DNA from: a virus
Lineage: Duplodnaviria > Caudoviricetes
Strand: one strand, 5' to 3'
DNA: 64,000 bases
IMG/VR virus record: IMGVR_UViG_3300028804_000002
Location: 1 to 64,000 of that record
Positions 419 through 17,800 of this stretch are shown piece by piece; positions within the stretch are counted from its first letter, which is position 1, and each line of letters begins with the position of its first letter. A program made the translations under genes and the position numbers. Under the pieces are notes generated by a model, which had not been told where the DNA came from, made no database searches, and saw only the letters and a program-made list of their open reading frames with translations.

Positions 419-1293
419 TGGAATTACAATATAAAACATTTAATCAATTAATGTCATCAGTATCGTCGGATCTAAGTAAATATGCTGATGAAGGTATGAT
501 TGATGATATACTCTATATAAAAGAGGCAAGAAAAGTAAATGCAGAATTAGGACTTAAAATAAATAAAGAAAAAGAAATAATATTAGATGTAGTTAATTAT
601 AAGGCATGTTTGCCCGACGATTTCCAATATCTCCAATTGGCATTAGCCTGCTCAGTTTCTTATGTTACTGTACCAAAAATCCAAGGTGTACATACAGAAG
701 ATAAAGTAATTCCTCTTAAAAACTTATGCAGTGAGTGCGGGCAAACTCCTTGTAATTGTAAGATTGAATTCAAGGCCTGTAATGGTTATAAATATGTAGC
801 TCAAACAGTAGGTATAAAAACTTATAAACATGAAAATTTAGATTTAATATCACTTACAAAAGCATCATATAAATTTTGTTCCGATTCTTGTTTAAATTTA
901 GGTTTTAAATCTCCTAATGTAATGAATATTATGGGAGAAGAAGCAACTTTTTCTTTTAGATCAGGTAAAGTATATCTGAATTATTTATCAGATATGGTAG
1001 ATGATGCAGGTAATTATTTAATTCTAGATCATCCACTTACCAATGATTATTATGAATATGCTATAAAAAAGAAAATACTTGAAAATTTTAAACTAAATAA
1101 AGATGCTGATGTAGCACAGGATTTACAATATGTAATTACTCAATTAAGAGATGCAAGAACAAGAGCAATTAGTATTGTTAATATGCCAGAATATGATGAG
1201 ATAAATGAATATTTTGCTAGAAATAGAAGAAGATTTTATAATGATTATGTGAAATACTTTGATAACAAAGAAAGCGGATATTATCAACTATGA
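418..1293 (+). CDS. crAss-like tail ring (tubular) protein
   Basis: 291 aa with 'YKACLPDDF' and 'SFRSGKVYLNYLS..D..G..LILDHP' patterns resembling crAss-like ring proteins, a Cys-rich insert, and synteny before the muzzle. Confidence 0.6.
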   Translation: MELQYKTFNQLMSSVSSDLSKYADEGMIDDILYIKEARKVNAELGLKINKEKEIILDVVNYKACLPDDFQYLQLALACSVSYVTVPKIQGVHTEDKVIPLKNLCSECGQTPCNCKIEFKACNGYKYVAQTVGIKTYKHENLDLISLTKASYKFCSDSCLNLGFKSPNVMNIMGEEATFSFRSGKVYLNYLSDMVDDAGNYLILDHPLTNDYYEYAIKKKILENFKLNKDADVAQDLQYVITQLRDARTRAISIVNMPEYDEINEYFARNRRRFYNDYVKYFDNKESGYYQL

Positions 1294-1784
1294 TATTAAA
1301 TATAAAAGAAGCAATTTGTAAAGAAACTGTTGATAAAATAACAATAGCAATAAATAATTTACAACCTAAAGAAAAATTATTTATCTATTTTTCTAGTGAA
1401 GGAGGAGATGTAGATTCTGGAGAAGCAATTATAAGTATTATAAACAATAATGTAGATTTAATAGAGCTTGCAGGATATGGAGATATAATGAGTTGTGGTT
1501 TTGATATATTTTTTAGATCTAAATGTAATAAAATACTTTTACCAGGAGTTATTGGAATGTATCATCAAGGAACTATAACAGTTACTATGAATGAATCAGA
1601 AAAAATACATCAAACTAGAGATAAAGCAGATAAAGAATGGGCAAGTTTACAAAAAATACAAACAATTAAACTATGCAATCTTTTGAAAATGACAGATAAA
1701 GAAATAAATCAAATTAAAAGAGGTAGAGATGTCTATTTTCAATATCCAAGAATGCTGGATTTTTTAAATACACAACAAAAATAA
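1290..1784 (+). CDS. ClpP-like serine protease
   Basis: ClpP motifs 'YFSSEGGDV', 'IMSCG' (catalytic Ser), 'MYHQ' (His) and 'RDVYF' (Asp). Confidence 0.75.
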   Translation: MILNIKEAICKETVDKITIAINNLQPKEKLFIYFSSEGGDVDSGEAIISIINNNVDLIELAGYGDIMSCGFDIFFRSKCNKILLPGVIGMYHQGTITVTMNESEKIHQTRDKADKEWASLQKIQTIKLCNLLKMTDKEINQIKRGRDVYFQYPRMLDFLNTQQK

Positions 1785-4700
1785 TTGGAAAATTTAACTA
1801 ATATATATACAAATACTCCTATAAAAGGATTAGTTACAGATTTAGATGATAGTCTAATTTCTAAAGATTTGTGGACTCATATGCGTAATGGTACTACAAG
1901 TTCACACAAAGGTAATCAGCAATTTTTACAAAATGAACCAGCAAATTTATTTTGTTTAACTCTTCCATTAACTCCTATAGGATTTATAAAAATACTTAAC
2001 AATCGCTGGGTAGTGTTTAGTACAGATAATACTGATTCAGAAATAGGTATTTTTGATGAGAGTAAATGTACTTATACTAAAGTAGTTAATGATCCATGTT
2101 TAAATTTTAATACATCATTTCTTATAAGAGGAGCTTTTAAAGAATCATTCGATCAAACAGAATCTATTTATTGGACAGATTCTGGAAGAAACCCTCGTAG
2201 AAAATTAAATCTTTCTAAAATACCATATAAAATAAAGAAAATTAAAGATGACGCTTGTAAAACTAAAGAATTTACAGAAGATTTAGATTGTGATGCTCTT
2301 CTTATGACTCCTAAATTAGATGTTCCATGTATAAATGTAAGATTAGGAGCTGGAGGCAATTTAAAAAATGGATCATATCAATTTGGTATAGCTTATACTA
2401 TAAATCAACAAAGAGTAAGTGAATTTTATTCTATAACTAATCCTGAAGCTATTTGGTCTCATAATAATACAGGTCAAAGTATGGTTTTAGATATAGATGG
2501 AATAGATAGAGATTTTCCAGAATATGAACTTATAGTTATATATACTCAACTTGGAATAACAACGGCTAAAAGAATAGGATTTTTTAATACATCTAATAAT
2601 AGACATTCAATAACTTCAGTTGATAAACCAGAATATATAAATATTCCAATTGAAGAAATAATAACAAAAAGACCTTATTATTATGCTGCGGATGATGTAG
2701 TATCTAATGATCAGTATATATTATGGTCTGGAGTTACATCTAAACCTGAACTTAATTATCAAAAGAAAGCTCTCGATATAAAAACTAAGTGGGTTCTTTA
2801 TCAGGTTCCATCAGATTATTATTCTAGAGGAGGTAATAAAAAAGGTTATTATAGAGGAGAAGTATATACATTTGGTATTCAATGGTTATATAATACTGGA
2901 GAATGGTCTAGTGCATTTCATATACCAGGAAGAAAGCCAGAAGGAGCAGAAACTAATGATGCTACTGGTACAGATGTATATGAGATTAGTATAAAAGATT
3001 GTGAAGTAGATACTAAAATTAGAAACTTTGAAGTATATGATACTTCTAAAAAAACTAAAACGATTAATGATAATAAAGAATGTAATGAGAAGATAATTAC
3101 TGAAGGTACAATGAGTTATTGGGAAAGTACAGATCTTTATCCTGATAATAAGATTATGTTTGGTGATTTAGCTTGTAAACCAATAAGACATCATAAATTT
3201 CCAGATGAATGTCATGCTCCTCGTTATGAAAAAGGTGGTCAATTTATTAATATTCTTGGAGTTAAGTTTGAAAATATAGAACATCCTAAAGATGATAAAG
3301 GAGTAGAAATAGATTCTATTGTTGGTTATAGAATAGTGAGAGGAGATCGTAAAGGTAATCGTTCTATTATATCTAAAGGTATATTTAAAAATGTTAGAAG
3401 TTATAATGAAACTATTAATGAACAAAGTGATACTACTGAGGTATTATATCAGAATTATCCTTACAATGATTTAAGACCAGATCCATTTATATCTTCTTTC
3501 CAAACTTATTTTAAAAAGCAAGAAAAAAATTTTAGACCTCTTAGTAATTATAAAAAAGATCAATTTACTTTTTATTCTCCAGAGACTTTATTTAATAAAG
3601 TATCTTTAGGAGATGAATTTATTTTGGATACTGAAGAAATTGGAACAGTTACTACTGGATTTGAAGAAGTATATAATCATCCAAGAGGTAAAGCTCTTAA
3701 CAATTCAATATTTTGGTTAGCAATAGCGGTTGGTGCTATTGATGGTGTACTTTCACTTTTTGGAAAGAAATGTGTTACTACAGTAAAAGATGGTACTATT
3801 AAGTTTGCAACAACAGTTGGTGAAGTTAATTATGAAACAACAACTATAAATTATGCTGGTACTGGTCATAAGTTAGTTCAAGATTGTGAAGGTCTTATTA
3901 ATGGATTAAATGTAAGAGATATATTAGCTTTACCTAATGCTGCAGAAAAAGTAGCTAAACTTGCTTTAAAAGTATTACAAACAGCAGTATCAGTTGGTAT
4001 GGCTGCTTATTTTGCATTAAATACTGCGAATGAAATTATAAAAACTATACAAGAATTTCAACCTTATAGAAAATATGCTTTACAAGTAAATAGTTATTGT
4101 TTATTTAATGATTTTAAATGTGTAGAAAGAAATTTTCGTAGAAAACATATTGATTATTATCAATACCTTTATGATGGTATAAATACTGTAAATGGTTTAA
4201 CTTTTAATAATTTTAAAAGAGAGGATGCGGTATATATAAAACTTAATTCAGATGTAAGAGATCCTAAAACAAAAGATACATCTAAGAAAACAATGAGTGA
4301 AGCTGGAATATGTGGTACTCCATTTAAAAAATTTCAAAATAAAGCTTCTGTATATTATGGTACAATAAAAAGAAGAATAACTAATCAATATGGTCAGATA
4401 GATTCTATAAGATATCTTGATACTGGTTATTGTATTAATAGATTAGTAGATGTTTCGGCTACTGGATCTAGAAATAGAGTATATAAAACAGATGTAGTAT
4501 TTGGTGGAGATACGTTTATATCAAAAATGTCAATAAAGAGTTCTCATCAATATTTTAGTCAAAATATAGCCAATCAAAATTTTCCAGATGGAACTGAATA
4601 TGACTATACTCTTTATAGAAATATAGGATATCCTAGATTCTGGTTTGATAGTACACAATATGATGTTGGAGAATTATTAGTAGTAGGTAAAGTTCCAAAT

Positions 4701-6431
4701 AAATTACCACAAAATAGATATAATTTTGATTGTGGTAAAACAGAAAGATCTAATAATAAACTTACATTTGATAATAAATTAGGATATTTTTATTTATCTA
4801 ATAATGGAGTACTTGAATTTTTTGTAGAATCAGAATATAATTTAGATTATAGAGATTATAAAAACGAAATTCAAAACTTCTTTTCTAAAACTTATAGTAA
4901 TCTTCATGATTTGTTTAGAAGTGATAGATTAGATACTCCAGAAGAGTTTATCTATGATGAATCATATTCTAAAGAACTTACAGAAAATGCTATATTTCAA
5001 CAGGCAATAGATTATGATCCACTTGTAAATTACTATACTTATTATAAAAATAGGGTAATATATTCTTTACCAGCTTTTAAGGATCAAAAAAGCGACAATT
5101 GGTTAACATATCTTACTAATAATTATTATGATTTTCCACTTGCTGAATATGGTAATTTAACCGGTATGCATGGTGTAGATAATCAACAAATAATGTTTTT
5201 ATTTGATAAATCAGCTCCTTATATAACTATAGGTAGAGATGAACTTCAATTAGATGGTACTGGAACTAAAGTAACAATTGGTGATGGAGGATTATTTGCA
5301 AGAGAACCCAGACCACTTCTTTATACGGATTATTACTATGGTAATTCACAAAGTAGATGGGCATTTGTAAATACACAATTTGGATCATTTTATCCATCTC
5401 AAAGACAAGGTAGAGTATTTAAATATACTGGAAAGATGGAAGAAATATCTAGACAAGGTATGCATTTTTGGTTTAAAGAATTTTTACCTAGTAAATTACT
5501 TGAACAATTTCCAGATTTTAAAGATAAAGATAATCCAGTAGTAGGAGTAGGATTAACTAGTGTATTTGATAATAGTAAACAAGTATATTATTTAACAAAA
5601 AAAGATTATAAATTAAAGGATCAGTATATTGGATTAATAACATATGATCCTATAGAAAATAAATTTAGTGGTAGAGCTAAGCTTAGTGATCCTAAGTATT
5701 TTGATGATATATCTTGGACTATAAGTTATGATCCAGCAGCAAATCAAGGAGAAGGTGGATTCATTAGTTGGCATGATTGGCATCCAAATTGGACTATACA
5801 AGGAGAAAATCATTTTATGGTAGTTAAAGATAAATCTATATGGAAACATAATATACGTTGCGATTTATTTTGTAATTTTTTTGGAGTAGATTATCCATTT
5901 GAAATAGAATATCTTATTAATAATGGAAAAACTGTTCAAACATTAAGAAGTATAGAATATGTACTAGAAACCGGTAAATATTTTCAAGATTGTAGATTTT
6001 TTCATCAAATACTTGATGATAATTTTGATGAATTAGTTATTCATAATCTTGAACAAAATAGTGATATTCTTAAAATGAATTTAGGCGAAAAAAGAACAAT
6101 GTCAGAAGCTTTAGAATATCCTAAACTTATTAATGGACAATGGAATATTAAATACGATAAAGAAGAACAAAAAATATCAGTACAACAATTTTGGGATTTA
6201 ACTAAAGATAGAGGTGAATTCAGTGGTAATAATTTTCCATTATGGCAGATACATGCAAATGGATATATTAAAACACCAGAATCAAGATCTATCAATGTTA
6301 ATAAATCTCAATTTCAACGTAAAAAATTTAGAAATCTTTGGCATAAAGTTTTTCTTCGTAAAAATATTTCTAATGATCGTAAATATATATTTAAATTTGG
6401 AGATACTTCTCAAACCTTATCTCCTAGATAA
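1785..6431 (+). CDS. Tail stabilization/muzzle protein (crAss-like; P22 gp10 analogue)
   Basis: 1548 aa with TTG start. 'KGLVTD', 'YWTD..NPRR', 'GYRIVRGDR', 'FGGDTFI', 'WTISY' and 'ISWHDWHP' patterns are typical of crAss muzzle proteins. It precedes the cargo genes. Confidence 0.75.
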   Translation: MENLTNIYTNTPIKGLVTDLDDSLISKDLWTHMRNGTTSSHKGNQQFLQNEPANLFCLTLPLTPIGFIKILNNRWVVFSTDNTDSEIGIFDESKCTYTKVVNDPCLNFNTSFLIRGAFKESFDQTESIYWTDSGRNPRRKLNLSKIPYKIKKIKDDACKTKEFTEDLDCDALLMTPKLDVPCINVRLGAGGNLKNGSYQFGIAYTINQQRVSEFYSITNPEAIWSHNNTGQSMVLDIDGIDRDFPEYELIVIYTQLGITTAKRIGFFNTSNNRHSITSVDKPEYINIPIEEIITKRPYYYAADDVVSNDQYILWSGVTSKPELNYQKKALDIKTKWVLYQVPSDYYSRGGNKKGYYRGEVYTFGIQWLYNTGEWSSAFHIPGRKPEGAETNDATGTDVYEISIKDCEVDTKIRNFEVYDTSKKTKTINDNKECNEKIITEGTMSYWESTDLYPDNKIMFGDLACKPIRHHKFPDECHAPRYEKGGQFINILGVKFENIEHPKDDKGVEIDSIVGYRIVRGDRKGNRSIISKGIFKNVRSYNETINEQSDTTEVLYQNYPYNDLRPDPFISSFQTYFKKQEKNFRPLSNYKKDQFTFYSPETLFNKVSLGDEFILDTEEIGTVTTGFEEVYNHPRGKALNNSIFWLAIAVGAIDGVLSLFGKKCVTTVKDGTIKFATTVGEVNYETTTINYAGTGHKLVQDCEGLINGLNVRDILALPNAAEKVAKLALKVLQTAVSVGMAAYFALNTANEIIKTIQEFQPYRKYALQVNSYCLFNDFKCVERNFRRKHIDYYQYLYDGINTVNGLTFNNFKREDAVYIKLNSDVRDPKTKDTSKKTMSEAGICGTPFKKFQNKASVYYGTIKRRITNQYGQIDSIRYLDTGYCINRLVDVSATGSRNRVYKTDVVFGGDTFISKMSIKSSHQYFSQNIANQNFPDGTEYDYTLYRNIGYPRFWFDSTQYDVGELLVVGKVPNKLPQNRYNFDCGKTERSNNKLTFDNKLGYFYLSNNGVLEFFVESEYNLDYRDYKNEIQNFFSKTYSNLHDLFRSDRLDTPEEFIYDESYSKELTENAIFQQAIDYDPLVNYYTYYKNRVIYSLPAFKDQKSDNWLTYLTNNYYDFPLAEYGNLTGMHGVDNQQIMFLFDKSAPYITIGRDELQLDGTGTKVTIGDGGLFAREPRPLLYTDYYYGNSQSRWAFVNTQFGSFYPSQRQGRVFKYTGKMEEISRQGMHFWFKEFLPSKLLEQFPDFKDKDNPVVGVGLTSVFDNSKQVYYLTKKDYKLKDQYIGLITYDPIENKFSGRAKLSDPKYFDDISWTISYDPAANQGEGGFISWHDWHPNWTIQGENHFMVVKDKSIWKHNIRCDLFCNFFGVDYPFEIEYLINNGKTVQTLRSIEYVLETGKYFQDCRFFHQILDDNFDELVIHNLEQNSDILKMNLGEKRTMSEALEYPKLINGQWNIKYDKEEQKISVQQFWDLTKDRGEFSGNNFPLWQIHANGYIKTPESRSINVNKSQFQRKKFRNLWHKVFLRKNISNDRKYIFKFGDTSQTLSPR

Positions 6432-6433
6432 TT

Positions 6434-8884
6434 ATGAAAAGAAAATTAAAAAAATGTCAGGAAGGTGGTCCTGGTCCATTATGGTTACTTCCAGGAAAAC
6501 AAAATTCTTCACAATTTAATATACAATGTCCGGAAGGATATCATTGGTCTACCTTTGAAGGTAAGTGTGTGCCTGATTTAATTCAATCACAAAATCCAAC
6601 AGATAATTATTTAGGAAATCTAGATCCTAAACCAATCAGAACTATAAAGAAATCTGATATAGCTCCAAGAGTTGGAGATAATACTATATGGGAGACTCCT
6701 GGAGATATAAATGGTAACAAACCTCAACCTCCAGTAAATCCAACTCCAGGTGTTCCAGTAGATCCAAAACAAATAGATACTGGATCAAATGAAAATGGTG
6801 GTAATTTAAATAATACAGTTACTTCAAATCAACCACAATTTCAATTTAAAACAAAAGCTACATTTGGTAATATAGATTATGGATATCGTTCATTATCTAA
6901 TTCTATACAAGGTATAGCTGCATTTTTTAGAGAAAAACATAATAGAGCTGGGCAAAGAAAATATTATGAAAATCAATTTAATCCATTAACTTATATACCA
7001 TATACTGGTAATACCAGTGAACAAAATCAATTTGGAATGGATTATTTTAAAAAAGGAGGAAAATATAAATATCCAGATGGTGGACAAACCTATAAAGGTA
7101 AACAAAAAGGTTTTGATAAAGATATAGTTTATATAGATAAAGGTAAAGGTAAATTATATTTTTATGATGACAAAGGTAATCTTCAAGAAAAAGAAGCTCT
7201 TACTGGTAAAAATAGAAAAGGTCATCTATTAAATCCATATAATAAAATAGATACTTTTTCTGAAAATCAAAAAGATACTGATAAAATAACTCCAATTGGA
7301 ATGTTTCCATTATCAAAAGTAAGAAATATTTATGGCAATCCTGGATTAGATATTCTTGGTACAATAGATAAAAAGGGTCAAGGAATAGCTATACATTCTA
7401 CTTACGATCCTGGATATAGAAATCAATTTTATTATAATAATAATTCTGAAGATAATGCTCAGTCTTATGGTTGTATAAATTGTAATAAAACAGAAAGTGA
7501 TAAGATAGCAAAAATGTATGCAAATAAGAAAGTTTATATTTATGATAGTAATCTTTCAGATGAAGAGAATCAAAAATATAATGTTGTAAATAATCTTATT
7601 GCGGAAGATAATTCTTTGTATAATAAACTAGCTAATACTTTTAATAAATCAAAAGTTATTTCTTATAGAAAAAGTAATGATGGTAAACTTTATAGTACAA
7701 AAGGATCTTATGATCCAGTTACAGAAACAATGATACCAAATAATGATTTAAAAGAAGTAGTAGTTAGATCTAGTAAAACTAAACAGATACCTAAATCTAT
7801 AATAGAGAAACAAGAACAAATACAAAATAATGTAGTTACTCAACCAAATGAAATAACTCCTATAAAAAAATCATCTGTAATTTCAGTAAAATCTGACATA
7901 AAAAATCCATCTATAGTTGACTTTCTTAATTCTTCTGGACTTAATTCAACTTTTAAAGAAAGATCTAAATTAGCTAAGGTAAGAGGTATAGAAAATTATA
8001 AAGGTACGGCAGATCAAAATTTGAAATTGCTTGCAATGTTAAGATCTGAAACTCTTAATACCAATGATATTCCTGCATCTAGAAAAATGAAAGATGGTGG
8101 TTGGATAAAAGAAGCAATTAATCCTGCTCATAAAGGATATTGTACTCCTATGACTAAATCTACTTGTACTCCTCATAGAAAAGCATTTGCAATAAGAGCT
8201 AAAAATCATTTCAAAGAAGACGGAGGTCCAGTAAATTTTGATGAAGAATTTGAAAATGAAATATTTGGTGAACCAGTAGTAGATAAAAGAGTACCTCAAG
8301 AAGAACCTGAAGTAACTCAAGAATCTACTCCAGAACAAGATAACTGGACAGACGAATATTTAATGGAAGATCAACAAAGATATAGAAGTAAAAGTTTAAA
8401 TGAAGATGGAGATACACCAGATATAATTCAAGCATTTAAAAATGGTATATCCAATGTAGAATCTGGCGGAGATTATTATGCTCAAGCTAAAGGATCTTCA
8501 GCATATGGTAAATATCAATTTACTAAAGGTACTCTTGAACAAGTAAGAAAACAATTTTATCCACAAATTGGATCAAAAGAATTTGAAAATGCTTACAAAA
8601 CAGATCCAGAATTTCAAGAAAAAATAATGGATACTTATTCTAAATATCTATTATCAACTTCTAACACTCCTCAAGAAGCTGCTTTGAAGCACTTTTTGGG
8701 TGAAGCTGGAGTTAAAAAAGCCATTAATCCTACTTATAATCCTGGAGGAGTAAATATGAATGTAGGTGCTTATATAAATAAATTTAATAAAGGATTTAAA
8801 TATGAACAAGGTGGAGAATATGAAGTAGATGAACAAACAATTCAAGAATTAAAAAACCAAGGATATGATATTGAAATTATGTAA
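6434..8884 (+). CDS. Virion cargo protein with L,D-transpeptidase(YkuD)-like, DUF3597-like and lysozyme/lytic-transglycosylase-like domains
   Basis: 'TPIG.F...IAIH...SYGCIN' (YkuD-like); 'SIVDFLNS.GLNSTFKERSKLA...GIENYKGTADQNLKLL' (DUF3597-like); 'ISNVESGGDY...SSAYGKYQF' (lysozyme-like fold). Confidence 0.7.
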   Translation: MKRKLKKCQEGGPGPLWLLPGKQNSSQFNIQCPEGYHWSTFEGKCVPDLIQSQNPTDNYLGNLDPKPIRTIKKSDIAPRVGDNTIWETPGDINGNKPQPPVNPTPGVPVDPKQIDTGSNENGGNLNNTVTSNQPQFQFKTKATFGNIDYGYRSLSNSIQGIAAFFREKHNRAGQRKYYENQFNPLTYIPYTGNTSEQNQFGMDYFKKGGKYKYPDGGQTYKGKQKGFDKDIVYIDKGKGKLYFYDDKGNLQEKEALTGKNRKGHLLNPYNKIDTFSENQKDTDKITPIGMFPLSKVRNIYGNPGLDILGTIDKKGQGIAIHSTYDPGYRNQFYYNNNSEDNAQSYGCINCNKTESDKIAKMYANKKVYIYDSNLSDEENQKYNVVNNLIAEDNSLYNKLANTFNKSKVISYRKSNDGKLYSTKGSYDPVTETMIPNNDLKEVVVRSSKTKQIPKSIIEKQEQIQNNVVTQPNEITPIKKSSVISVKSDIKNPSIVDFLNSSGLNSTFKERSKLAKVRGIENYKGTADQNLKLLAMLRSETLNTNDIPASRKMKDGGWIKEAINPAHKGYCTPMTKSTCTPHRKAFAIRAKNHFKEDGGPVNFDEEFENEIFGEPVVDKRVPQEEPEVTQESTPEQDNWTDEYLMEDQQRYRSKSLNEDGDTPDIIQAFKNGISNVESGGDYYAQAKGSSAYGKYQFTKGTLEQVRKQFYPQIGSKEFENAYKTDPEFQEKIMDTYSKYLLSTSNTPQEAALKHFLGEAGVKKAINPTYNPGGVNMNVGAYINKFNKGFKYEQGGEYEVDEQTIQELKNQGYDIEIM

Positions 8885-9500
8885 AATTTGTAATAAAGAA
8901 TATTATTCTTCTGATTCAAAGAATTCAAATGTATGTAGTTTAGAATGTAGAAAACTATATAGTAATTCGTATGGTAAATTCGGATTACCACAAAGAAATG
9001 AAGAAAACTTACTTTTATGTTATAATTGTTTAGAATATAAAAAAGATGAGGAGTTTTGGAATCATAAGAATAAACATATTCCAGAATCTAGAAATGGAAA
9101 AAATACAACTTGTGGTTCTTGTAATAAATACAAAAATAATTTACTTAGAGATGAAAAGAAAGAAACATTAGATGGTATTTTAAAAAATAGATTAAATATT
9201 GCAAAGTATAGTTCAAAAAAGAGAAATATATATTTTGATAATGAATTAGATATAAAATATCTTAAAAATATATATGATGAACAAGATGGTAAATGTGCTC
9301 TTTCAGGAGAAATATTAGAATTTGGAAAATGGGATAATAAAACACTATCAATTGACAGAATAGATTCTAATTTAGGTTATTCTAAAGGTAATATTCAATT
9401 AGTTTGTTGGATTATTAATCATATGAAAGTTAATCTAGAACAAAATGAATTTATAAATTGGTGTAATAAAATATCAGAAAAACAATTAATAAGTATATAA
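8865..9500 (+). mobile_element. Free-standing HNH-type homing endonuclease
   Basis: CxxC zinc motifs and 'GKCALSG...LSIDRIDSNLGYSKGNIQLVCWIINHMK' beta-beta-alpha-Me core. Overlaps the upstream gene. Confidence 0.8.
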
Positions 9501-9502
9501 TA

Positions 9503-11449
9503 ATGGCAAAAATTAGAATAAATAATATTCCAGAAAAAATGAGAAATAAAAGTGTATCAAATCATAATTATTGGTTCACAAAAAGTGGAGCAATTAAAAC
9601 TACTGATACAAATTATATATCTCCAGTTAAAGAAGAAATTACAACTTCAGTTAAAGAAGTTCCAGAAGAAATTGCAACTATAGAAGCAGAAAAAGGAGAA
9701 CTTATAACCAAACCTGGACTTGTAGGAATATATAAGATATTAGGTAAAACTCATGCAAATGGAGGAACTAAACTTAATCCAGAACCTGGTAGTTTTATAT
9801 TTAGTAATGATCCTAGACTTTCTATTAATAAAACAGAGAAGAAACTCTTTGATTTTAAAGAAGGAGGATCAGTTGCAAAACGTAAAAATACTCCAGCTAA
9901 AATTCTTGAGAGAGAAATAGATATGGAAGAATATAATCGTTATTTAAACATACTTCAAAATCCTAAGGCTGAAAAAATAGAAAGAGCTACAGCTCAAATA
10001 ATGATTGATAAATATCAAAAAATAATAGGTCAAGTAGCTTATCTTCAAGAATCTAAGAAAAATAAACCTATACCAGAATTTGCTATGGGTACAGCTCCTA
10101 TAAAAAATCCAGAACTTACTGATAAAGAACAAGAGCAAGAAATGTATAAACAAGGTGGTCTTGTAAAATTAGCTCTTGGAGATGAATGGTGTCCTTGTGG
10201 TAAGGATGAAAATGGTAAATGTTTACCTTGTGAAGATGATGTTTATAAAAAAGTTTTAAAAGAGAAAGCCAAGAAAGTATCTGTGGTACCAGCCGGGTAT
10301 GATTATCTTTATAAGGATGAAGATGGTAGTTCTTTATATGGTAAATTTGGAACCACTCCAGGTAATAAAAAGAAAATGACTAATCAACAATGGTTAGACT
10401 ATCTTAAAAATGAAACACCTCAACAAAAAATCAAAAGATTACAAAGACAAAGTACTGAAGGTAAAGATACTGAAGATTATGTATATACTAATAATCAAAG
10501 AATGATACCTAATGTACCTCTATATACAGCACAAAGATCTCCTTCTCCTCCAGCTACGATAGTAACTAAAGAGAATCCTATTAAGCCTACACAGCCAGCA
10601 GTAGGAGAAGAACCAACTCCTGGTAATCTACCTTATGATATTAAAGGTTATCTTACTCCAGCTCAGAAAGCTCATCTTAGTTATCTTGGTTTACAAGCCA
10701 TGGGTATTAAAAGATATATGCCTATGAGAGAACAAATTCATCTTGGTAGAGTATCTTTAGATAAACAGAATTTACAACCTTTTTTAAATGGTATTAGAAA
10801 TCAAGAGTTTCAGGCTTATAATTCAGCCAATGTAGTTAATCCTAGACAAGCTGCTTTACTTAATTCAAATACATTTGGTAAAGGTATAGATGCTGAAACT
10901 CAAGCAAGAGGTCAAGTAGAAGCCGCTAATATACAAATAGGTAATCAGGAGAATTTGACTAATTTACAACAAAGTAATCAAGAACAGATGTTCAATATAC
11001 CTGCTAGTGGTAAGTATTATGATCAAACTGTGATATCAGCTCAAAATTTTGATGATGAACGTAGATTTGCAAATAATCAAGTTATGAGTACTTTAAATAA
11101 ATATCAATCAGATGCTGATGCTCTTGCTTGGTCTTTAGCTAGTGTAAATAAATATGGTACTAGAAAAGTAACAGATCCCAAAACAGGTAAAATATATAAT
11201 CAACCAGTACCTTTATATGAATATTTACCAAGTGGTAGAATTAGATATAATTCTGATGTGGCTTCACTTAATATGGCTACTGGAGCTGATAAAACAAATT
11301 CTATAGCTGAAATTAAATCAATTATGGAACAATTTGGACTTAATTCTAGTGATCCTAAACAAATATATGCTTTTGCAAAACTTTATGAATCAATTACTGG
11401 TAAAGGTAAAAATGCTATATATCAAAATAATCCAACGTTTCCACAATAA
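9503..11449 (+). CDS. Virion cargo/internal protein
   Basis: 'IEAEKGE...GKTHANGGT...FIFS' motif of crAss-like structural proteins and a Q/N-rich helical C-terminal half, in the cargo block. Confidence 0.55.
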   Translation: MAKIRINNIPEKMRNKSVSNHNYWFTKSGAIKTTDTNYISPVKEEITTSVKEVPEEIATIEAEKGELITKPGLVGIYKILGKTHANGGTKLNPEPGSFIFSNDPRLSINKTEKKLFDFKEGGSVAKRKNTPAKILEREIDMEEYNRYLNILQNPKAEKIERATAQIMIDKYQKIIGQVAYLQESKKNKPIPEFAMGTAPIKNPELTDKEQEQEMYKQGGLVKLALGDEWCPCGKDENGKCLPCEDDVYKKVLKEKAKKVSVVPAGYDYLYKDEDGSSLYGKFGTTPGNKKKMTNQQWLDYLKNETPQQKIKRLQRQSTEGKDTEDYVYTNNQRMIPNVPLYTAQRSPSPPATIVTKENPIKPTQPAVGEEPTPGNLPYDIKGYLTPAQKAHLSYLGLQAMGIKRYMPMREQIHLGRVSLDKQNLQPFLNGIRNQEFQAYNSANVVNPRQAALLNSNTFGKGIDAETQARGQVEAANIQIGNQENLTNLQQSNQEQMFNIPASGKYYDQTVISAQNFDDERRFANNQVMSTLNKYQSDADALAWSLASVNKYGTRKVTDPKTGKIYNQPVPLYEYLPSGRIRYNSDVASLNMATGADKTNSIAEIKSIMEQFGLNSSDPKQIYAFAKLYESITGKGKNAIYQNNPTFPQ

Positions 11450-11527: not shown

Positions 11528-12316
11528 ATGAGAAAATTAGAACTTGATGATAAATTTATATTAGAAAAATATAAAGAATTTAAATCAGCAAAACCAATTG
11601 CAAAATTATTAAATTGTTCTGAAGGTACAATAAGATCTAGACTTAGAAAACATATAAATATTTTTAATAAATCTAAATCCTATTGTAATAAATATAATTA
11701 TAATAGAAATTATTTTGAAAATATAGATACTCCTCAAAAAGCATATATTTTGGGTTTTATTTCTGCAGATGGATGTAATTCAAAAACAAGACTTAAAGTA
11801 AATATACAAGAAAGAGATATAGAAATTATAGAATTTATAAGAAATGAAATTGGTGTTGATTTACCAATAGGAAGAAGAATAGGATATAATAATATTCAAA
11901 ATCAATCTTTAATATCTATATATTCAACTAAAATTTGTAATGATTTAAATAATTTAGGAGTTACACCAAGAAAAAGTAAAACTTTAAAATTTCCAAATAT
12001 AGAAAATAAATTAATGAGTGATTATTTAAGAGGATATTTTGACGGAGATGGTTGTATTAAAAAAGATAAAAAAGGTAATGGTTTTAGTTTTTCATATATC
12101 AGTGCTTCAGAAGATTTTATATTAAAATTAGAAGAAATATTAAGAAATAATTGTAATCTAAATTATAGAAAAATATATACTTATTCAAAAACTGGAGTAA
12201 AATATTTAGAATATACAAAGAAACAAGAATTAAAAAATATATTTAATTATTTATATAATAATTCTTGTTTTCATTTAAGTAGAAAATATGAAAAATTTTT
12301 AAGTGTAAATGGCTAA
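11528..12316 (+). mobile_element. Free-standing double-motif LAGLIDADG homing endonuclease with N-terminal HTH
   Basis: 'AYILGFISADG' and 'YLRGYFDGDG' motifs, N-terminal 'IAKLLNCSEGTIRSRL' HTH, C-terminal 'LSRKY'. Confidence 0.88.
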
Positions 12317-14843
12317 TTATCTTTCAAATCCAGCATATAATACTTATCAGACTGATCCGTATCGTTTACCTGTGCAACAGATAGTTCAAGCTATAGATAC
12401 ACGTAATAAATATTGGGATATAGGTGCTTCTCAAGTCAAATCAGCCTATCAGAATTATCTTAATTTAGATTTATCTCTTAAAGCAAATCAAGATAAATTA
12501 GATGGTTTAATGCAGGGAGTTAATACTAATTTAAAGAAAGTAGTATCTACTGATCTTTCTTTAGCAGATAATGTAAATACTGCTATGAAGATATTTGATC
12601 CTATAACTAAAGATGATGATATTAAATATGATAATGCTATAACTAAACATTATAGACAACAAGCAAGTTTGGCTCAAAATCTTAAAACTACTAATGGTGG
12701 TAAAGATTATAATGATGCTAATTTTGCTTATATGGTTAAACCATTACAAGATTTTATAAAAAATAATGATCCAAAATTAGGTAGAGAAGTATATAGTAAT
12801 CGTAGATATTATACTCCTTATTATGATGTAATGGAAGAATGGAATAAAATTGAGAAGAATTTTAAACCAGACGCCACACAATTTACTAGACCAGAAACAG
12901 ATGCTAATGGAAAAATTACTAACAATGGTAGAATGATAGAAGAGAAAAATAAATCTGTGTATGCTTCTCAATTTAGAGCATATATGAACTCTCATTTATC
13001 AGATAAAGCGAAACAACAACTTAATATTAATGGAGTAGTTGCCTATGGAGATCATGTAGAAACTATTGCAAATGATTATTTAAATTATAATTCAGAAAAA
13101 ATAGATTCGTATAATCATGAGATTAATATTTTAAAAGGTAAAAAAGAAGCTGCTATTAAAAGTGGTAGAACTAATGATGCTGAATTATATCAACATGACA
13201 TAGATAGGTATGACACAGAAGTAAAACGACTTGGAGTAACTAATACAAAACTTAAAATTAAAGATTATAGTGATCTTATAAAAGATAAAGATGCTATTGC
13301 TGGTCAGATGTACACAAGTAATTGGATAGATAATATCTCCAAAGCTTCCGAAAGAAAGGATATAGAAATTAAATATTCTAAAGATGACGCAGCTTTATTC
13401 TTTTTAAAAATGGATAATGATAATAAGAATAAGAATGCTGATAGAGAAATGGATTGGAAAATAGCAGAACTTAATAATGATACTAAGCTTAAAATAGCTG
13501 AAATGACTGCTAGCAACAAAAAAGATAAGAATGGTGAAGATATTGAAACAGAACCTACTTATGGAGTTTCTACAGAAGATGATAATGAAAATTTTGGAAA
13601 ACCAGAAGTAGATAAAATAATTTCAGATGGTGAAAAAATTAAATCTGATGCAGCCGATGGATTAAATAAATATCTTACTTCAATAGGTATTATAGATTCT
13701 AAAAAACCAAAAGCTACTAATGATGCTGCTATTGAAGAATGGAAGAAAAATAATCCTAATGATTATCATTGGAAAAATTATAGAGAGCAAATAGATTTAG
13801 GAGATTCTAATATTGCAGCAGGCAAAGCCATTCAAGATTATGTAAATCAAGAAGTAAGAAGAAATAATCCAAAATTATTTGATCGATCATCTATAAAAGA
13901 TATAAAACCAATAACTTTTAATGGAATAACAATAACTGCAGAAGATGTTCAAAATTCTTTAGAAGGTAGATCATCTAAAATAAAAGTTATAAAAGGTAAT
14001 ACTGGAATAAATTCTACATCATCTGTTGGAATTCCAATAAATAGTGGATATATTCCAGATAGACTTTTTATAAATGGAGTAGAAATTCCATCTACATATG
14101 GAAAACCAGGTAATGATGTTATGATGTATTATAATAAAATAGAAGGTAGAAATTTTGAAAATACACAAAAAATATTATCAGAAAGTAATACATTATATAA
14201 TCAAGCTATGACTAAAATACAAGGATTAGAGAGATTTACACAAAATGCTAAAGACAGTAATGCTATAAAATCTGTACAAAATATAGTATATGGAAAACTC
14301 GCTGCAACTGGAATTAAACCAGATGATGTTACTATTACTCATCGTGATAAATCTGGAGGTGTTTATTTTAAAGTAGATGCAACTGCAGATAATGTTAGTC
14401 CGAGTAAGATAAAAGATATTATACTTTCTTCTGGAGGTAAATATAAGAAACAATTTGAAGGTGGATCTTATTATTTACCAAATTCAGAAGTAGGATCTTT
14501 TATTAGACCAAAGACATTTTCTGATTCTAGATTAAATGCAATTCAAACTCAAATAGATTGGAGAACGGCAGCATCAAAAAATAATGATGTTTTTAATACA
14601 ACAAGTATTAAATTTGGAAATAGAGATTTTCTATTTAGAATAACAAATAGAAATAGTGTTCCAATGTATGAAGTAATTGATGAAGATTCGGGAGCTTCAT
14701 TTATAAACTTTTCCACTGGTCAACCTTTTTCTACATTAGAAGAGGCTTCTGCTATGGCAAATGCTTTAGCAAATTTAAAACCAGCTGATTTAGAAGCAAA
14801 AATTAGAATACTAGGTAATAAACCAGATTATAAAATTAAATAA
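12309..14843 (+). CDS. Virion cargo/ejection protein
   Basis: 844 aa with 'YYTPYYD' and helical N-terminus. Coupled to the vRNAP gene (TAATG), matching the crAss-like gene order. Confidence 0.55.
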   Translation: MANYLSNPAYNTYQTDPYRLPVQQIVQAIDTRNKYWDIGASQVKSAYQNYLNLDLSLKANQDKLDGLMQGVNTNLKKVVSTDLSLADNVNTAMKIFDPITKDDDIKYDNAITKHYRQQASLAQNLKTTNGGKDYNDANFAYMVKPLQDFIKNNDPKLGREVYSNRRYYTPYYDVMEEWNKIEKNFKPDATQFTRPETDANGKITNNGRMIEEKNKSVYASQFRAYMNSHLSDKAKQQLNINGVVAYGDHVETIANDYLNYNSEKIDSYNHEINILKGKKEAAIKSGRTNDAELYQHDIDRYDTEVKRLGVTNTKLKIKDYSDLIKDKDAIAGQMYTSNWIDNISKASERKDIEIKYSKDDAALFFLKMDNDNKNKNADREMDWKIAELNNDTKLKIAEMTASNKKDKNGEDIETEPTYGVSTEDDNENFGKPEVDKIISDGEKIKSDAADGLNKYLTSIGIIDSKKPKATNDAAIEEWKKNNPNDYHWKNYREQIDLGDSNIAAGKAIQDYVNQEVRRNNPKLFDRSSIKDIKPITFNGITITAEDVQNSLEGRSSKIKVIKGNTGINSTSSVGIPINSGYIPDRLFINGVEIPSTYGKPGNDVMMYYNKIEGRNFENTQKILSESNTLYNQAMTKIQGLERFTQNAKDSNAIKSVQNIVYGKLAATGIKPDDVTITHRDKSGGVYFKVDATADNVSPSKIKDIILSSGGKYKKQFEGGSYYLPNSEVGSFIRPKTFSDSRLNAIQTQIDWRTAASKNNDVFNTTSIKFGNRDFLFRITNRNSVPMYEVIDEDSGASFINFSTGQPFSTLEEASAMANALANLKPADLEAKIRILGNKPDYKIK

Positions 14844-17800
14844 TGGCAGAACCAACTTCAGATATATTAACTGGAATAAATCCAGTAGAGGTACTTAATA
14901 TGCAGCATGATACCGAAGCTAGGTATGCAGAGCTGTTTAAATCTATTGATACTACTCCTCCAAATATTACACAACCTCAACTTCCAGATTTTCATCAAGG
15001 TATAGTCGGACCTGGTGATAATATTAATATTGATAAAAATTCTTATGATTATCAATTAGCAGATTTTGCTAATTTAACAAAGAATGTTCAAAAACAATAT
15101 CCTGATAGTTTTAAATTTCAACCAGATCTTAGAATACCACAAACAGAAACTAATCGTTATATAGATGAAGATTTTGGTTATAAACTAGAAAGAGATAATG
15201 AGGATTTCTATGCTAGTCAACAAGGAGCTTTTAAAGAAATAATGAAAGCTTTATTTGTTAAACTTCCTACATATACATTTACAAAACTTGGTACTGGTGT
15301 TGGATATCTTTTAGGACTTGTAGATCCTACAAACTGGGGTTCTAATTATATTCAAAAGGCTGGAGATAATATGATTGCTAAAGCTTTTAGTGATCTTGAA
15401 GATAATCTTAAGAATGATTGGTTAACTACATATAGACATACAGTAGATCAAAATAAAGGATTCTTTGAAAGAGCTGGTACAGATTTATCTTTCTGGACAG
15501 AAGACTTTGTTGATGGTGCTGCTTTTCTTGCTTCAGCATTTGTACCTGGAGCTATAATATCTAAAGTTGGACTTGGAGTAAAAGCTGCTCAATTAGCTGA
15601 ATTAGCTAATGGAGTAGAGAAATCTAGTGCTCTATTAACTAATTTAGGTAAATTCTCTGTTAAATATGGAGATAGATTATTCACTACTGCAGTAAATACA
15701 GCTTCAGAATCTATGTTTGAAGCTAAGGGAGTTAGAGATAAAGTATTTGCTGATTTAATGGCTACTGGTAAATATAGTAAAGACGAAGCCACAGATATAG
15801 CTGCACAAAAAGCCAAGAATAGTTTTCTTTGGAATATGGCAGCATTGTCATTCTCTAATGCTTGGGAAACAAATCTATTTTATAAGGCTCTTGGTAAAAG
15901 TGCACCATCTAAAATAGAAACAAAGGTAACAAGTCTACTCGAAGATTATGCTGCAGCTGGTACTGCAAAAAAACTAGGTAAGCTTGCTTATTATAGTAAT
16001 AAAGCATTACAAGGTGCATTAGTAGAAGGCTTTTATGAAGAAAACATTCAACTTGCTATTCAAAGAAAAAACGAAGGTAGAAATACTTATAATGGATATT
16101 TTACTGTTCTAGGTCAGCTTTTACAGCAAACCAAAGATGCTATAAAAGGTAATGATAAAGAAGCTGCTGAGAATATAGGTATGGGTGCCTTAATAGGTGT
16201 CATATTTGGTACAGGTACATCTCTTGCTACCAAAGAGTATTCTAGAGATAGAATAGCTACAGAACGTCTTGTAGCTTCTTTAAATGAAGCTAAAAATAAT
16301 TGGCTTAAAGTTCAGGATATTTATACAGTTGGACCAGATGGTAAAATAAAAGAAGATAAAGCTAAAGTTGCTGCTGCTTTCTTAACTCAAATGAAAACAG
16401 CAAATGATTTATCTGAAGCTCAAACAATAGAACATCCTATATTAAGAAATCTTGCTCAGAAAGAAATCTTTTCTACATTTATTGCATCTCATTTGCAACA
16501 AGGTAGTTTTGATTTATTGATGAAACAGCTTGATAATATAAATACTTACAAGCCAGAAGATCTTATTAAACTTGGTTTTGATCCTAAAGGAGATGTGGCA
16601 GCTCAAATAATGGAGTATAAAAATTATGCCCAAAGAGTAGCTAATATAAAAAAATCTATTGATGATAAAGTTGTAGTTACAGCTCCTGCTGATCTTGCTC
16701 GTAAGAATTATTTATTTACTCTTGGTAGTAGACAAGTAGCTCTTGATCAAGAATTAAATAAAGTAGAATCTAATATAGGATCACTTCAAAGTGAGATAGG
16801 TTATAGTTCAATTACAGATTCATTAGTGGATGATCTTAATTCTAAGCAAGTAAAAATTAAAGCTCAGAAAAAAACAGTTGCTCAAGCCGAACAAGAGGAT
16901 ATACAAGATGCCCAAACCAAACTTGATAAATATCAATCTGAGTATGATAATATAGTTAAAGATAATGAAGAAACTATTAAAAAACTTAAAAAAGATAAAA
17001 ATGGATTTTATTTTTATGAAGATGATAAAAAGAATAAACATCCAAGAGTAGCAGATTTAGGACAAGAAATTTATTTTAAAGCAGAATTAGAAAATACTAT
17101 TGATGATACTATGGATGAGTATAACAATACTCTTACAGATAGAAAAGATTTTAATAAAAAATATCAAGAATCATTAAAAGTAGTCCAAGAACGTTTAAAA
17201 GAGGAGGCTGAAAAAGTAAAAAAAGCAGAAGAACAAAAGAGAGCTGAAGAAGTTAAACAGACACAACCAGTTCCTACTGAAACTAAAAAAGAACCAACAA
17301 CTCAGACAAATGAACCTGTACAAGCTCCTGTAGCAAGTCAACAGGAGAGACATGATGCTATTTTAGCCAAGATTCCAAAGACTAAAAATATAAACGTTAA
17401 TCTACTTAATAGATTAATGGTTGAAGTAAATCAGGCTTCTATTAAAGGAGAAATAAGTGAAGATCAAGAAAGTGATTTAATAGCAATGCTTAATGCTAAA
17501 AATCCTATAGGTACTATACTTGATACTGAAGAAGATTTTAAATCTGAAGAAGAGAAAATAGTAACTCAAGAGAAATCAGAAGATCCTAAAGATAATGGAT
17601 TTAATCCAGATACTAATACTATTCAAGATATAAATTTTGAAGAAGAGACATTTTCTGCTCTTGCATTTAGATCTTCTAATAAAACAGTAACTCAAGAAGA
17701 AGTAGAAAAAGAAGGTTCTTATGTTGGAGTATTAGATGAAGATCCTTATAAAGTATTTAAACAAGGATTTTTACGTTATTTAATTGTAAATAACCTTGCA

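Follow-up and report, generated by a model that had tools for sequence, protein, structure and literature searches.

What does a short peptide ending in Gly-Gly do when it recurs along two large phage proteins, at the places where one domain gives way to the next? The question is raised by a stretch of 64,000 nucleotides (positions 1 to 64,000 of the IMG/VR record IMGVR_UViG_3300028804_000002; hereafter, the window), whose source genome is that of a crAss-like phage of 148,085 bp with about 27% G+C. The two proteins, known here from their genes alone, are P0001 (816 residues; 6434-8884, plus strand) and P0002 (648 residues; 9503-11449, plus strand). A preliminary description had listed eight xxxGG motifs in them, mostly preceded by basic residues and located at domain boundaries, and had proposed that they are either cleavage sites reminiscent of ubiquitin-like processing or capsid-targeting motifs that let domains be swapped in as cassettes. 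As a description this is right, while the two proposed mechanisms are supported in part only. According to our analysis, the family of crassvirus cargo protein C1, to which gp45 of crAss001 belongs, has [F/Y/M]-x-x-G-G as its conserved seam peptide; the motif is real and C1-specific, and literature searches found no published description of it. The seams are the places at which cassettes are gained, lost and reshuffled in frame.

All eight motifs were found in the translations of 6434-8884 and 9503-11449, and a lysine stands one to four residues before the glycine pair in 8 of 8. All are on the plus strand. The first of the six seams in P0001, CQEGG (residues 8-12; 6455-6469), ends a basic N-terminal tag, MKRKLKKCQEGG; G12 is at least 90% conserved in alignment A2. 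FKKGG (residues 205-209; 7046-7060) follows an invariant Y204 and contains G208, likewise conserved to at least 90% in that alignment. YPDGG (residues 213-217; 7070-7084), with G216 conserved to at least 90%, lies 13 residues before the YkuD domain. The fourth seam, MKDGG (residues 552-556; 8087-8101), is found together with its module in P0007, P0021, P0025 and P0098. KEDGG (residues 594-598; 8213-8227) reads FKEDGG when F593 is included, and YEQGG (residues 790-794; 8801-8815) is the last. That the motifs fall at domain boundaries agrees with the family matches obtained when eight open reading frames (ORFs) of the structural module were scanned with Pfam and PHROG: YkuD at residues 230-363, a DUF3597-like domain at 466-553 and a transglycosylase-like domain at 673-765.

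The two seams of P0002 are both tied to its conserved core domain. FKEGG (residues 118-122; 9854-9868) lies in the loop that links the core's beta part to its helical part, placed between H110-116 and H131-138, and is well conserved (F116 97%, F118 97%, K119 94%, G121 85%). YKQGG (residues 215-219; 10145-10159) stands where the core ends. Across the aligned P0002 homologues its Y215, G218 and G219 are each 97% conserved, compared with 18-48% for their neighbours, and the surrounding residues 201-228 have a predicted local distance difference test score (pLDDT) below 50. Such a conserved island in a variable stretch of low pLDDT is the signature of a short linear motif.

The motif occurs more often than composition predicts. 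In 20,000 shuffles, P0001 has 5 copies of [F/Y/M]-x-x-G-G vs 0.60 expected (P=0.0004) and P0002 has 2 vs 0.26 (P=0.027). Gly-Gly alone is not significantly enriched in these two proteins (9 vs 5.4 expected in shuffles), and further pairs, absent from the list in the preliminary description, lie inside domains and are not seam motifs (NENGG, VESGG and YNPGG in P0001; HANGG in P0002). The 157 other ORFs of the 148-kb genome show no enrichment either, with 25 motifs vs 18.2 expected; P0001 is the top outlier.

The same holds across the family. We collected 80 related loci from viral contigs and counted the motif per gene relative to the conserved gene that encodes the P0002-type core domain (core gene). 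The gene upstream of the core gene contains 339 copies where 60.5 are expected (ratio 5.6) and the core gene 230 where 50.7 are expected (4.5), whereas the first and second genes downstream are at chance level (28 vs 27, ratio 1.04; 45 vs 43.5, ratio 1.03). Because the excess is confined to the two genes at the C1 position and the polymerase cargo genes show none, the motif marks C1-type cargo only; the excess is strong and tied to these genes (5.6- and 4.5-fold vs about 1.0-fold). The sequence logo is informative at position -3 (M/Y/F, 42%), at -2 (K/A/Q), at -1 and at both glycines, while Gly-Gly sites of control genes give a flat logo. Among 90 P0002 homologues, 89 have between 1 and 19 copies each, and one fragment of 388 residues has none; the copies are mostly located in a variable N-terminal half of mini-modules, each ending in Gly-Gly. 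Furthermore, 51% of the upstream genes have a copy within their last 30 residues, usually exactly 22-23 residues from the end, and 33% of the core genes have one within their first 30. The glycine codons at the seams are the ordinary mix of GGT and GGA found elsewhere. With no codon preference, the signal is at the level of the protein and not of the DNA; a recombination hotspot or a Shine-Dalgarno-like pause at the seams was rejected.

Assignment of both proteins to the C1 family begins with gene order. In crAss001, the muzzle gene gp44 is followed by cargo C1 (gp45), cargo C2 (gp46) and then the polymerase proteins (PMC10172136), the gene order being gp44, gp45, gp46, gp47. P0001 starts directly 3' of the muzzle gene (1785-6431, plus strand; PF25731 crAss_MUZ, E=2.3e-24), which anchors the synteny from muzzle to C1 to RNA-polymerase cargo, and lies upstream of the polymerase-cargo position; crAss001 and the 80 loci have the same order. 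Hence gp45 (PF25725; PDB 7QOG, 7QOI, 7QOJ, 7QOL and 8CKB) occupies the position of P0001 and P0002, after the muzzle and before the polymerase cargo. Its general layout is the same: the N-terminal part is variable, the core compact, and the C-terminal part long, helical and rich in Gln and Asn. It contains at least ten motifs (IFDTGG, FSAYGG, AFAEGG, KAFGG, AYCGG, NAFGG, TQGG, NEGG, MFAYGG and KAKGG), which also occur near both termini. Residues 374-423 of gp45, the sole part of it that matches related-locus proteins in BLASTP, and residues 557-593 of P0001 are the same KG-(F/C)T...RKxAFA mini-module; another module, LSRE...KAFGG, is common to gp45 and P0007. The differences are equally clear: gp45 is one gene, whereas two genes split by an HNH gene are found here; P0001 has three cell-wall enzymes or binders that gp45 lacks, and its last residues form a C-terminal tag for which the end of gp45 has no counterpart; and the core of P0002 is unrecognised by PF25725 and aligns to gp45 weakly. 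In a further homologue, P0100 (1336 residues), a P0001-like part and a P0002-like part are naturally fused. On account of this fusion, and of the motif and mini-module common to gp45, we read the two proteins as halves of a split C1-type cargo protein, P0001 most likely being the payload half and P0002 the carrier half. Both are probably carried in the particle and injected; presence in the virion is shown for gp45 of crAss001 only (PMC10172136).

P0002 begins with a degenerate N-terminal tag, continues with the conserved core domain and closes with a C-terminal region that is long and helical. The core (residues 45-200; 9635-10102, plus strand) is modelled with a pLDDT of about 60-91 per 10-residue block, mostly above 80, and its invariant residues are E61, E63, E66, H84, G87, G88, T89, S97 and S101 in homologues whose identity falls as low as 27%. 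The core probably corresponds to the crAss_CARG1 domain that is bound to the portal, although the sequence link is weak: an hhalign match to gp45 461-500 has E=0.075, and a hmmsearch match to gp45 495-546, collinear with the former, has E=0.0056. The family model PF25725 matches gp45 424-555 with E=2.3e-66 and finds no match at E<=0.1 in P0002 or in any of 33 homologues. A PDB sequence search with P0002 gave chance matches only, Foldseek and VIA with the whole 648-residue model gave long-helix matches only, and tblastn of P0002 against cultured phages gave no match. The invariant Glu, His and Ser residues made the core a candidate protease; this was rejected, since the position of the His differs in gp45 and the domain is a portal adaptor there. 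In P0001, an hhalign comparison of residues 135-209 with the tail-barrel helix of gp45 was empty, and the supposed homology of the two was dropped.

Which modules are exchanged, and how do the seams delimit them? P0001, which we read as a string of cassettes that fold independently, is composed of the N-terminal tag, a conserved N-region, an L,D-transpeptidase, a wall-binding domain, a KG-CT mini-module, an acidic linker, a lytic-transglycosylase-like domain and the C-terminal tag. The catalytic domain of the L,D-transpeptidase (YkuD; residues 230-363; 7121-7522, plus strand) matches PF03734 with E=5.9e-08 and has a pLDDT of 54-79 over residues 221-310. It is followed by the DUF3597-like cell-wall-binding domain (residues 466-553; 7829-8092, plus strand; phrog_2307, E=4.9e-14), through which alone P0001 finds tblastn matches in cultured phages, namely in endolysins of Bacillus and Listeria phages. 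Mini-module A, WIKEAINPAHKGYCTPMTKSTCTPHRKAFAIRAKNHF (residues 557-593; 8102-8212, plus strand), is a mobile cassette of about 40 residues that recurs at other positions in P0007, P0010, P0021, P0025, P0038 and P0098. The lytic-transglycosylase-like domain (residues 673-765; 8450-8728, plus strand; phrog_4067, E=2e-06) holds the VESGG sequence mentioned above. Each cassette ends in a seam, and a seam also closes the basic N-terminal tag and opens the 22-residue C-terminal tag.

Comparison of relatives displays the exchange itself. In P0096 a new HExxH module has been added and the domain order is altered, in P0098 mini-module A is present twice, and in P0102 the lysozyme is a different one, Phage_lysozyme2; in all three, the junctions are Gly-Gly seams. 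A homologue search with gp45 415-600 retrieved 120 near-identical crAss001-type proteins, from which no useful profile could be built; they did, however, include proteins of different lengths, namely 842, 768/759 and 732/729 residues. These are 97-100% identical in the CARG1 region and differ by deletions with the ends NAFAE^GG...AKD^GG and NAF^AEGG...LK^AFGG (breakpoints are marked by ^). At the nucleotide level, crAss001 (gp45 at L081:16987-19515) and the cultured crAss001-type isolate PhiCrAssBcn1 (L084:4936-7134; PMC10354031) differ by an in-frame indel of 330 nucleotides, both ends of which read GA(A/T)^GGTGG and lie on the Gly-Gly codons. A separate observation concerns the N-terminal extensions of the P0002 homologues P0025, P0030 and P0021, where tandem repeats of 22-23 residues (GG-VIYPFGRxDGxExxxWFxDR) and repeats of 18 residues (LIFHPSDIEFPYLxKxGG) occur; both look like beta-hairpin wall-binding repeats.

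At the protein ends, the seams border two tags of opposite charge. The C-terminal tag of P0001, EYEVDEQTIQELKNQGYDIEIM (residues 795-816; 8816-8881, plus strand), was detected with a local hidden Markov model (HMM) at E=1.1e-11 (residues 789-816), with a helix predicted at 800-808, and is the only copy in the 148-kb genome. Its consensus, GG-EYELTxEEIxxLxxxGYxIEIL(D)-COOH, extends 22-23 residues after the last seam. The HMM finds it in 95 proteins, confined mostly to the gene just upstream of the core gene, and 91 of the 102 matches are at most 6 residues from the C-terminus. The core genes, in turn, start with a conserved basic strand, MKKVRIKxLPKAQxGG (loci L001-L080, first 20 residues). The start of P0001 resembles a short form of this N-terminal tag, and the start of P0002 (9503-9550) is a degenerate form of it, MAKIRINNIPEK, without Gly-Gly. 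In fused tagged proteins, an internal C-terminal tag is followed by LP(K/E)AQxGG. From the charge pattern, the acidic C-terminal strand may pair with the basic N-terminal strand, and these terminal tags are likelier than the internal seams to be the address or docking elements.

What is more challenging is the role of the seams themselves. We favour, tentatively and at somewhat less than an even chance, the interpretation that they are uncut anchor-plus-swivel joints of a modular protein that is stored extended and threaded through the tail, the terminal tags being its address elements. Most seams would stay uncut in the particle; at each of them the hydrophobic residue would pack on its module, and the glycine pair would give a free joint. 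The chain would be stored extended in the tail and the capsid lumen and would leave through the narrow channel by being pulled, module after module, and each module would then refold in the periplasm and attack the wall. In the crAss001 particle, residues 425-552 of gp45 are ordered on the portal (PMC10172136); this segment opens with AFGG, at the start of the Pfam crAss_CARG1 domain (from residue 424), and runs unbroken through TQGG and NEGG. At least these copies have thus not been cut, and one of them is a genuine junction between modules; ubiquitin-like cleavage at every copy, as the preliminary description had envisaged, does not fit.

Several observations weigh against the uncut joint. 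A plain hinge would not need a conserved aromatic residue or Met three positions upstream, nor would it call for the many copies that stand 8-20 residues from the N-terminus or 5-25 from the C-terminus. In favour of the joint, the motif is conserved where the sequence around it is variable and probably flexible, and all six seams of P0001 are in low-confidence stretches flanking confident domain cores; the structure model of this protein, built from a 12-sequence alignment and used for rough domain limits only, is poor (mean pLDDT 43), and low confidence in it is no proof of flexibility. Two observations fit cleavage just as well, the first of which concerns linker length. In the published model, one gp45 chain bridges about 420 Å, from a tail-barrel helix (residues 214-245) to the portal-bound domain, by means of 179 residues (PMC10172136). 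In PhiCrAssBcn1, whose gp43, gp44 and gp46 are 100%, 99.0% and 100% identical to those of crAss001, the same two segments of gp45 are joined by 69 residues, which span at most about 262 Å; as this is less than the gap, one intact chain cannot fill both sites.

The last of these observations comes from published MALDI (matrix-assisted laser desorption/ionization) peak lists of crAss001, which we re-fingerprinted (PMC6235969 source data, figure_3a_MS_spectra). Bands 1-9 were assigned in an order that fits the stated sizes: gp44 in bands 1-2, gp50 and gp47 in band 3, gp49 and gp44 in band 4, the portal gp20 in band 5, gp26 and gp22 in band 6, gp22 and gp25 in band 7, gp25 in band 8 and gp23 in band 9. 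In bands 1-10 (58 to >300 kDa), gp45 (90.7 kDa) has chance-level matches only, and there is no credible gp46; the 93-kDa portal, present in the same copy number as gp45, is seen in the same lists. The first crAss001 paper does not list gp45 among the identified proteins (PMC6235969). This negative result for gp45 is weak, because most bands hold more than one protein, good peptides from gp45 are few, and the lists analysed end at band 10, ahead of the three smallest bands (11-13; about 54, 35 and 15 kDa).

If an intact chain does not account for these data, a cut one might. The seams could be processing sites, at which a phage or host protease cuts after Gly-Gly where the seam is exposed, during assembly or after ejection, freeing the L,D-transpeptidase, the wall-binding unit and the transglycosylase as separate effectors and trimming terminal peptides; we consider this rather unlikely. 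Both the short linker of PhiCrAssBcn1 (PMC10172136) and the absent gp45 signal would find an explanation in it. The copies near both termini look like propeptide boundaries, and the C-terminus of the homologue P0067 is exactly ...NPYGG. Payload and carrier are already separate polypeptides here and in most related loci, so that a covalent link between them is not required. Cleavage at GG-X has a precedent in the proteases of adenovirus and African swine fever virus, and an apparently intact gene of a ClpP-like serine protease (164 residues; 1290-1784, plus strand; PF00574, E=1.2e-06), with Ser, His and Asp motifs that can be read as GDIMSCG, MYHQG and GRD, lies two genes upstream of P0001. The preliminary description had named this protease as a possible partner of the motif; however, a homologue is found in only 1 of 80 motif-bearing loci (L001), and no protease is co-distributed with the motif. 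We have thus ruled it out as a universal partner, and it is at best a candidate for a lineage-specific processing enzyme. In the scans of eight ORFs of the structural module it was the only protease, and none of the clan-CE or T4 type was seen. The virion atlas of crAss001 names no protease, and term searches of that paper find no mention of the seam motif, a protease or cleavage (PMC10172136). In the structure itself, at least four copies, AFGG, TQGG and NEGG among them, are uncut (PMC10172136). Nor is the motif enriched in the giant polyprotein of the polymerase, for which cleavage is presumed. Proline after Gly-Gly is only mildly depleted (4% vs 6% background) and is present in 2 of the 6 copies of P0001. 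The hydrophobic residue of the seam would be at position P5, but GG-specific viral and ubiquitin-like proteases have theirs at P4. The MALDI evidence, as said, is negative and weak. The strongest form of the idea, that C1-type cargo is a true phage polyprotein whose wall enzymes are released at [F/Y/M]-x-x-G-G by a phage protease (ClpP-like or zincin) or a host enzyme, and that the tail-stored and portal-bound parts of gp45 are separate fragments instead of a single chain threaded through the portal, appears to us a shade less probable still. If the seams were cut in this manner, the published ejection model would have to be revised, and a Gly-Gly processing system would be added to those of tailed phages.

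Just as likely as processing sites, in our view, is that the seams are docking handles, which would bind a repeated site of the particle (on the portal wing, on ring proteins in the tail barrel, on the muzzle or on adjacent cargo chains) and thereby, through many weak contacts, load, order and hold C1-type cargo. One protein's acidic C-terminal tag may, in addition, pair up with the basic tag at the N-terminus of its successor, and the resulting non-covalent chain would leave in gene order. Such handles should resemble what is found: the motif is confined to C1-position proteins and present in many copies (3-19 per protein), often terminal, and conserved in otherwise variable sequence. AFGG provides the first ordered residues of gp45's portal-bound domain, and the helix 214-245 bound to the tail barrel starts four residues after AYGG (PMC10172136). 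The positions of the two tags, one at the extreme C-terminus of the gene just upstream of the core gene and the other at the start of the core gene, as well as their succession in fused proteins, are in line with a docking role. Yet no order is seen in the map for the copy that precedes the tail-barrel helix, copy number varies widely, whole seam-bounded modules are dispensable in viable isolates, and the pairing of the tags is deduced from their charges alone. A general capsid-targeting signal, the second mechanism of the preliminary description, is contradicted because the polymerase cargo lacks the motif; the cassette swaps that this proposal included are real and are seen at the seams of P0096, P0098 and P0100 and in the crAss001 indels. 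Finally, the possibility that the motif has no function and merely reflects a composition rich in Gly and Lys, or the shared ancestry of duplicated modules, is very improbable: although Gly-Gly alone is not significantly enriched in the two proteins, and some modules, being clear paralogues, would owe their common ends to descent (e.g. the 23-residue VIYPFG...DRGG repeats), it is already contradicted by the composition-preserving shuffles of P0001, the family-wide excess with flat controls, the 97%-conserved islands, and the fact that the motif ends such unrelated folds as YkuD, the wall-binding domain, the transglycosylase and the HExxH module.

Other known systems share some of these traits. 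Polyvalent proteins of phages and conjugative elements, reportedly described by Iyer, Burroughs, Anand, de Souza and Aravind in 2017, are large proteins delivered with the DNA and built from many unrelated, shuffled enzyme modules, often peptidoglycan hydrolases and zincin peptidases. P0001 is alike in that it has several unrelated catalytic or binding domains, and its domain set varies among relatives. We know of no shared junction peptide or terminal tags in polyvalent proteins; in contrast, a single conserved pentapeptide links the modules here, and the proteins are those of one syntenic virion gene. In maturation by the adenovirus protease, by pS273R of African swine fever virus and by T4 gp21, which cuts the capsid-targeting sequence of T4 internal proteins, the cuts are marked by short peptides ending in Gly-Gly or by an N-terminal address peptide. 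C1-type cargo differs from these in that P5, not P4, is hydrophobic and that the one crassvirus particle solved so far has several copies left uncut. The ejection proteins of T7 (gp14, gp15 and gp16) and P22 (gp7, gp16 and gp20) are likewise proteins of podovirus particles and are ejected before the DNA, and T7 gp16 has an N-terminal lytic transglycosylase. However, they have no sequence similarity to the proteins described here, no known seam motif and no cassette shuffling, and they are stored in the capsid and not also in the tail. The same T7/P22-type comparison has been made for gp45 (PMC10172136).

The junction peptide and the two terminal tags together provide a rule for reading giant genes that are otherwise unannotatable, for they give the limits of the modules and the C1-type identity. 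The question of how protein cargo is stored and ejected concerns the crassviruses, the most abundant among human gut phages. The seam peptide explains how new enzymes are plugged into their cargo, while the linker-length argument questions whether one gp45 chain spans both tail and capsid. For experiments, the seams, the tags and the natural isolates with a deletion of 110 residues are a precise handle.

The remaining genes of the structural module complete the picture of the locus. Ring protein 1 (418-1293; PF24228, a weak match) is encoded upstream of the ClpP-like protease gene. Downstream of P0002, a gene for a protein of 844 residues (12309-14843), with no Pfam or PHROG match and no seam enrichment, is likely the counterpart of the gene of 800-1200 residues that follows the core gene in 80 of 80 loci; it is succeeded by an ORF of 4665 residues (14843-28840). 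Two homing-endonuclease genes, one of the HNH type (8865-9500, plus strand; phrog_1035 and phrog_3118) and one of the LAGLIDADG type (11528-12316; PF14528), both occupy junctions between successive cargo genes. The HNH gene overlaps the last 20 nucleotides of P0001 and stops 2 nucleotides ahead of the start codon of P0002. In related loci the two cargo genes mostly adjoin without an intervening gene, and it is in this junction that the HNH gene sits here.

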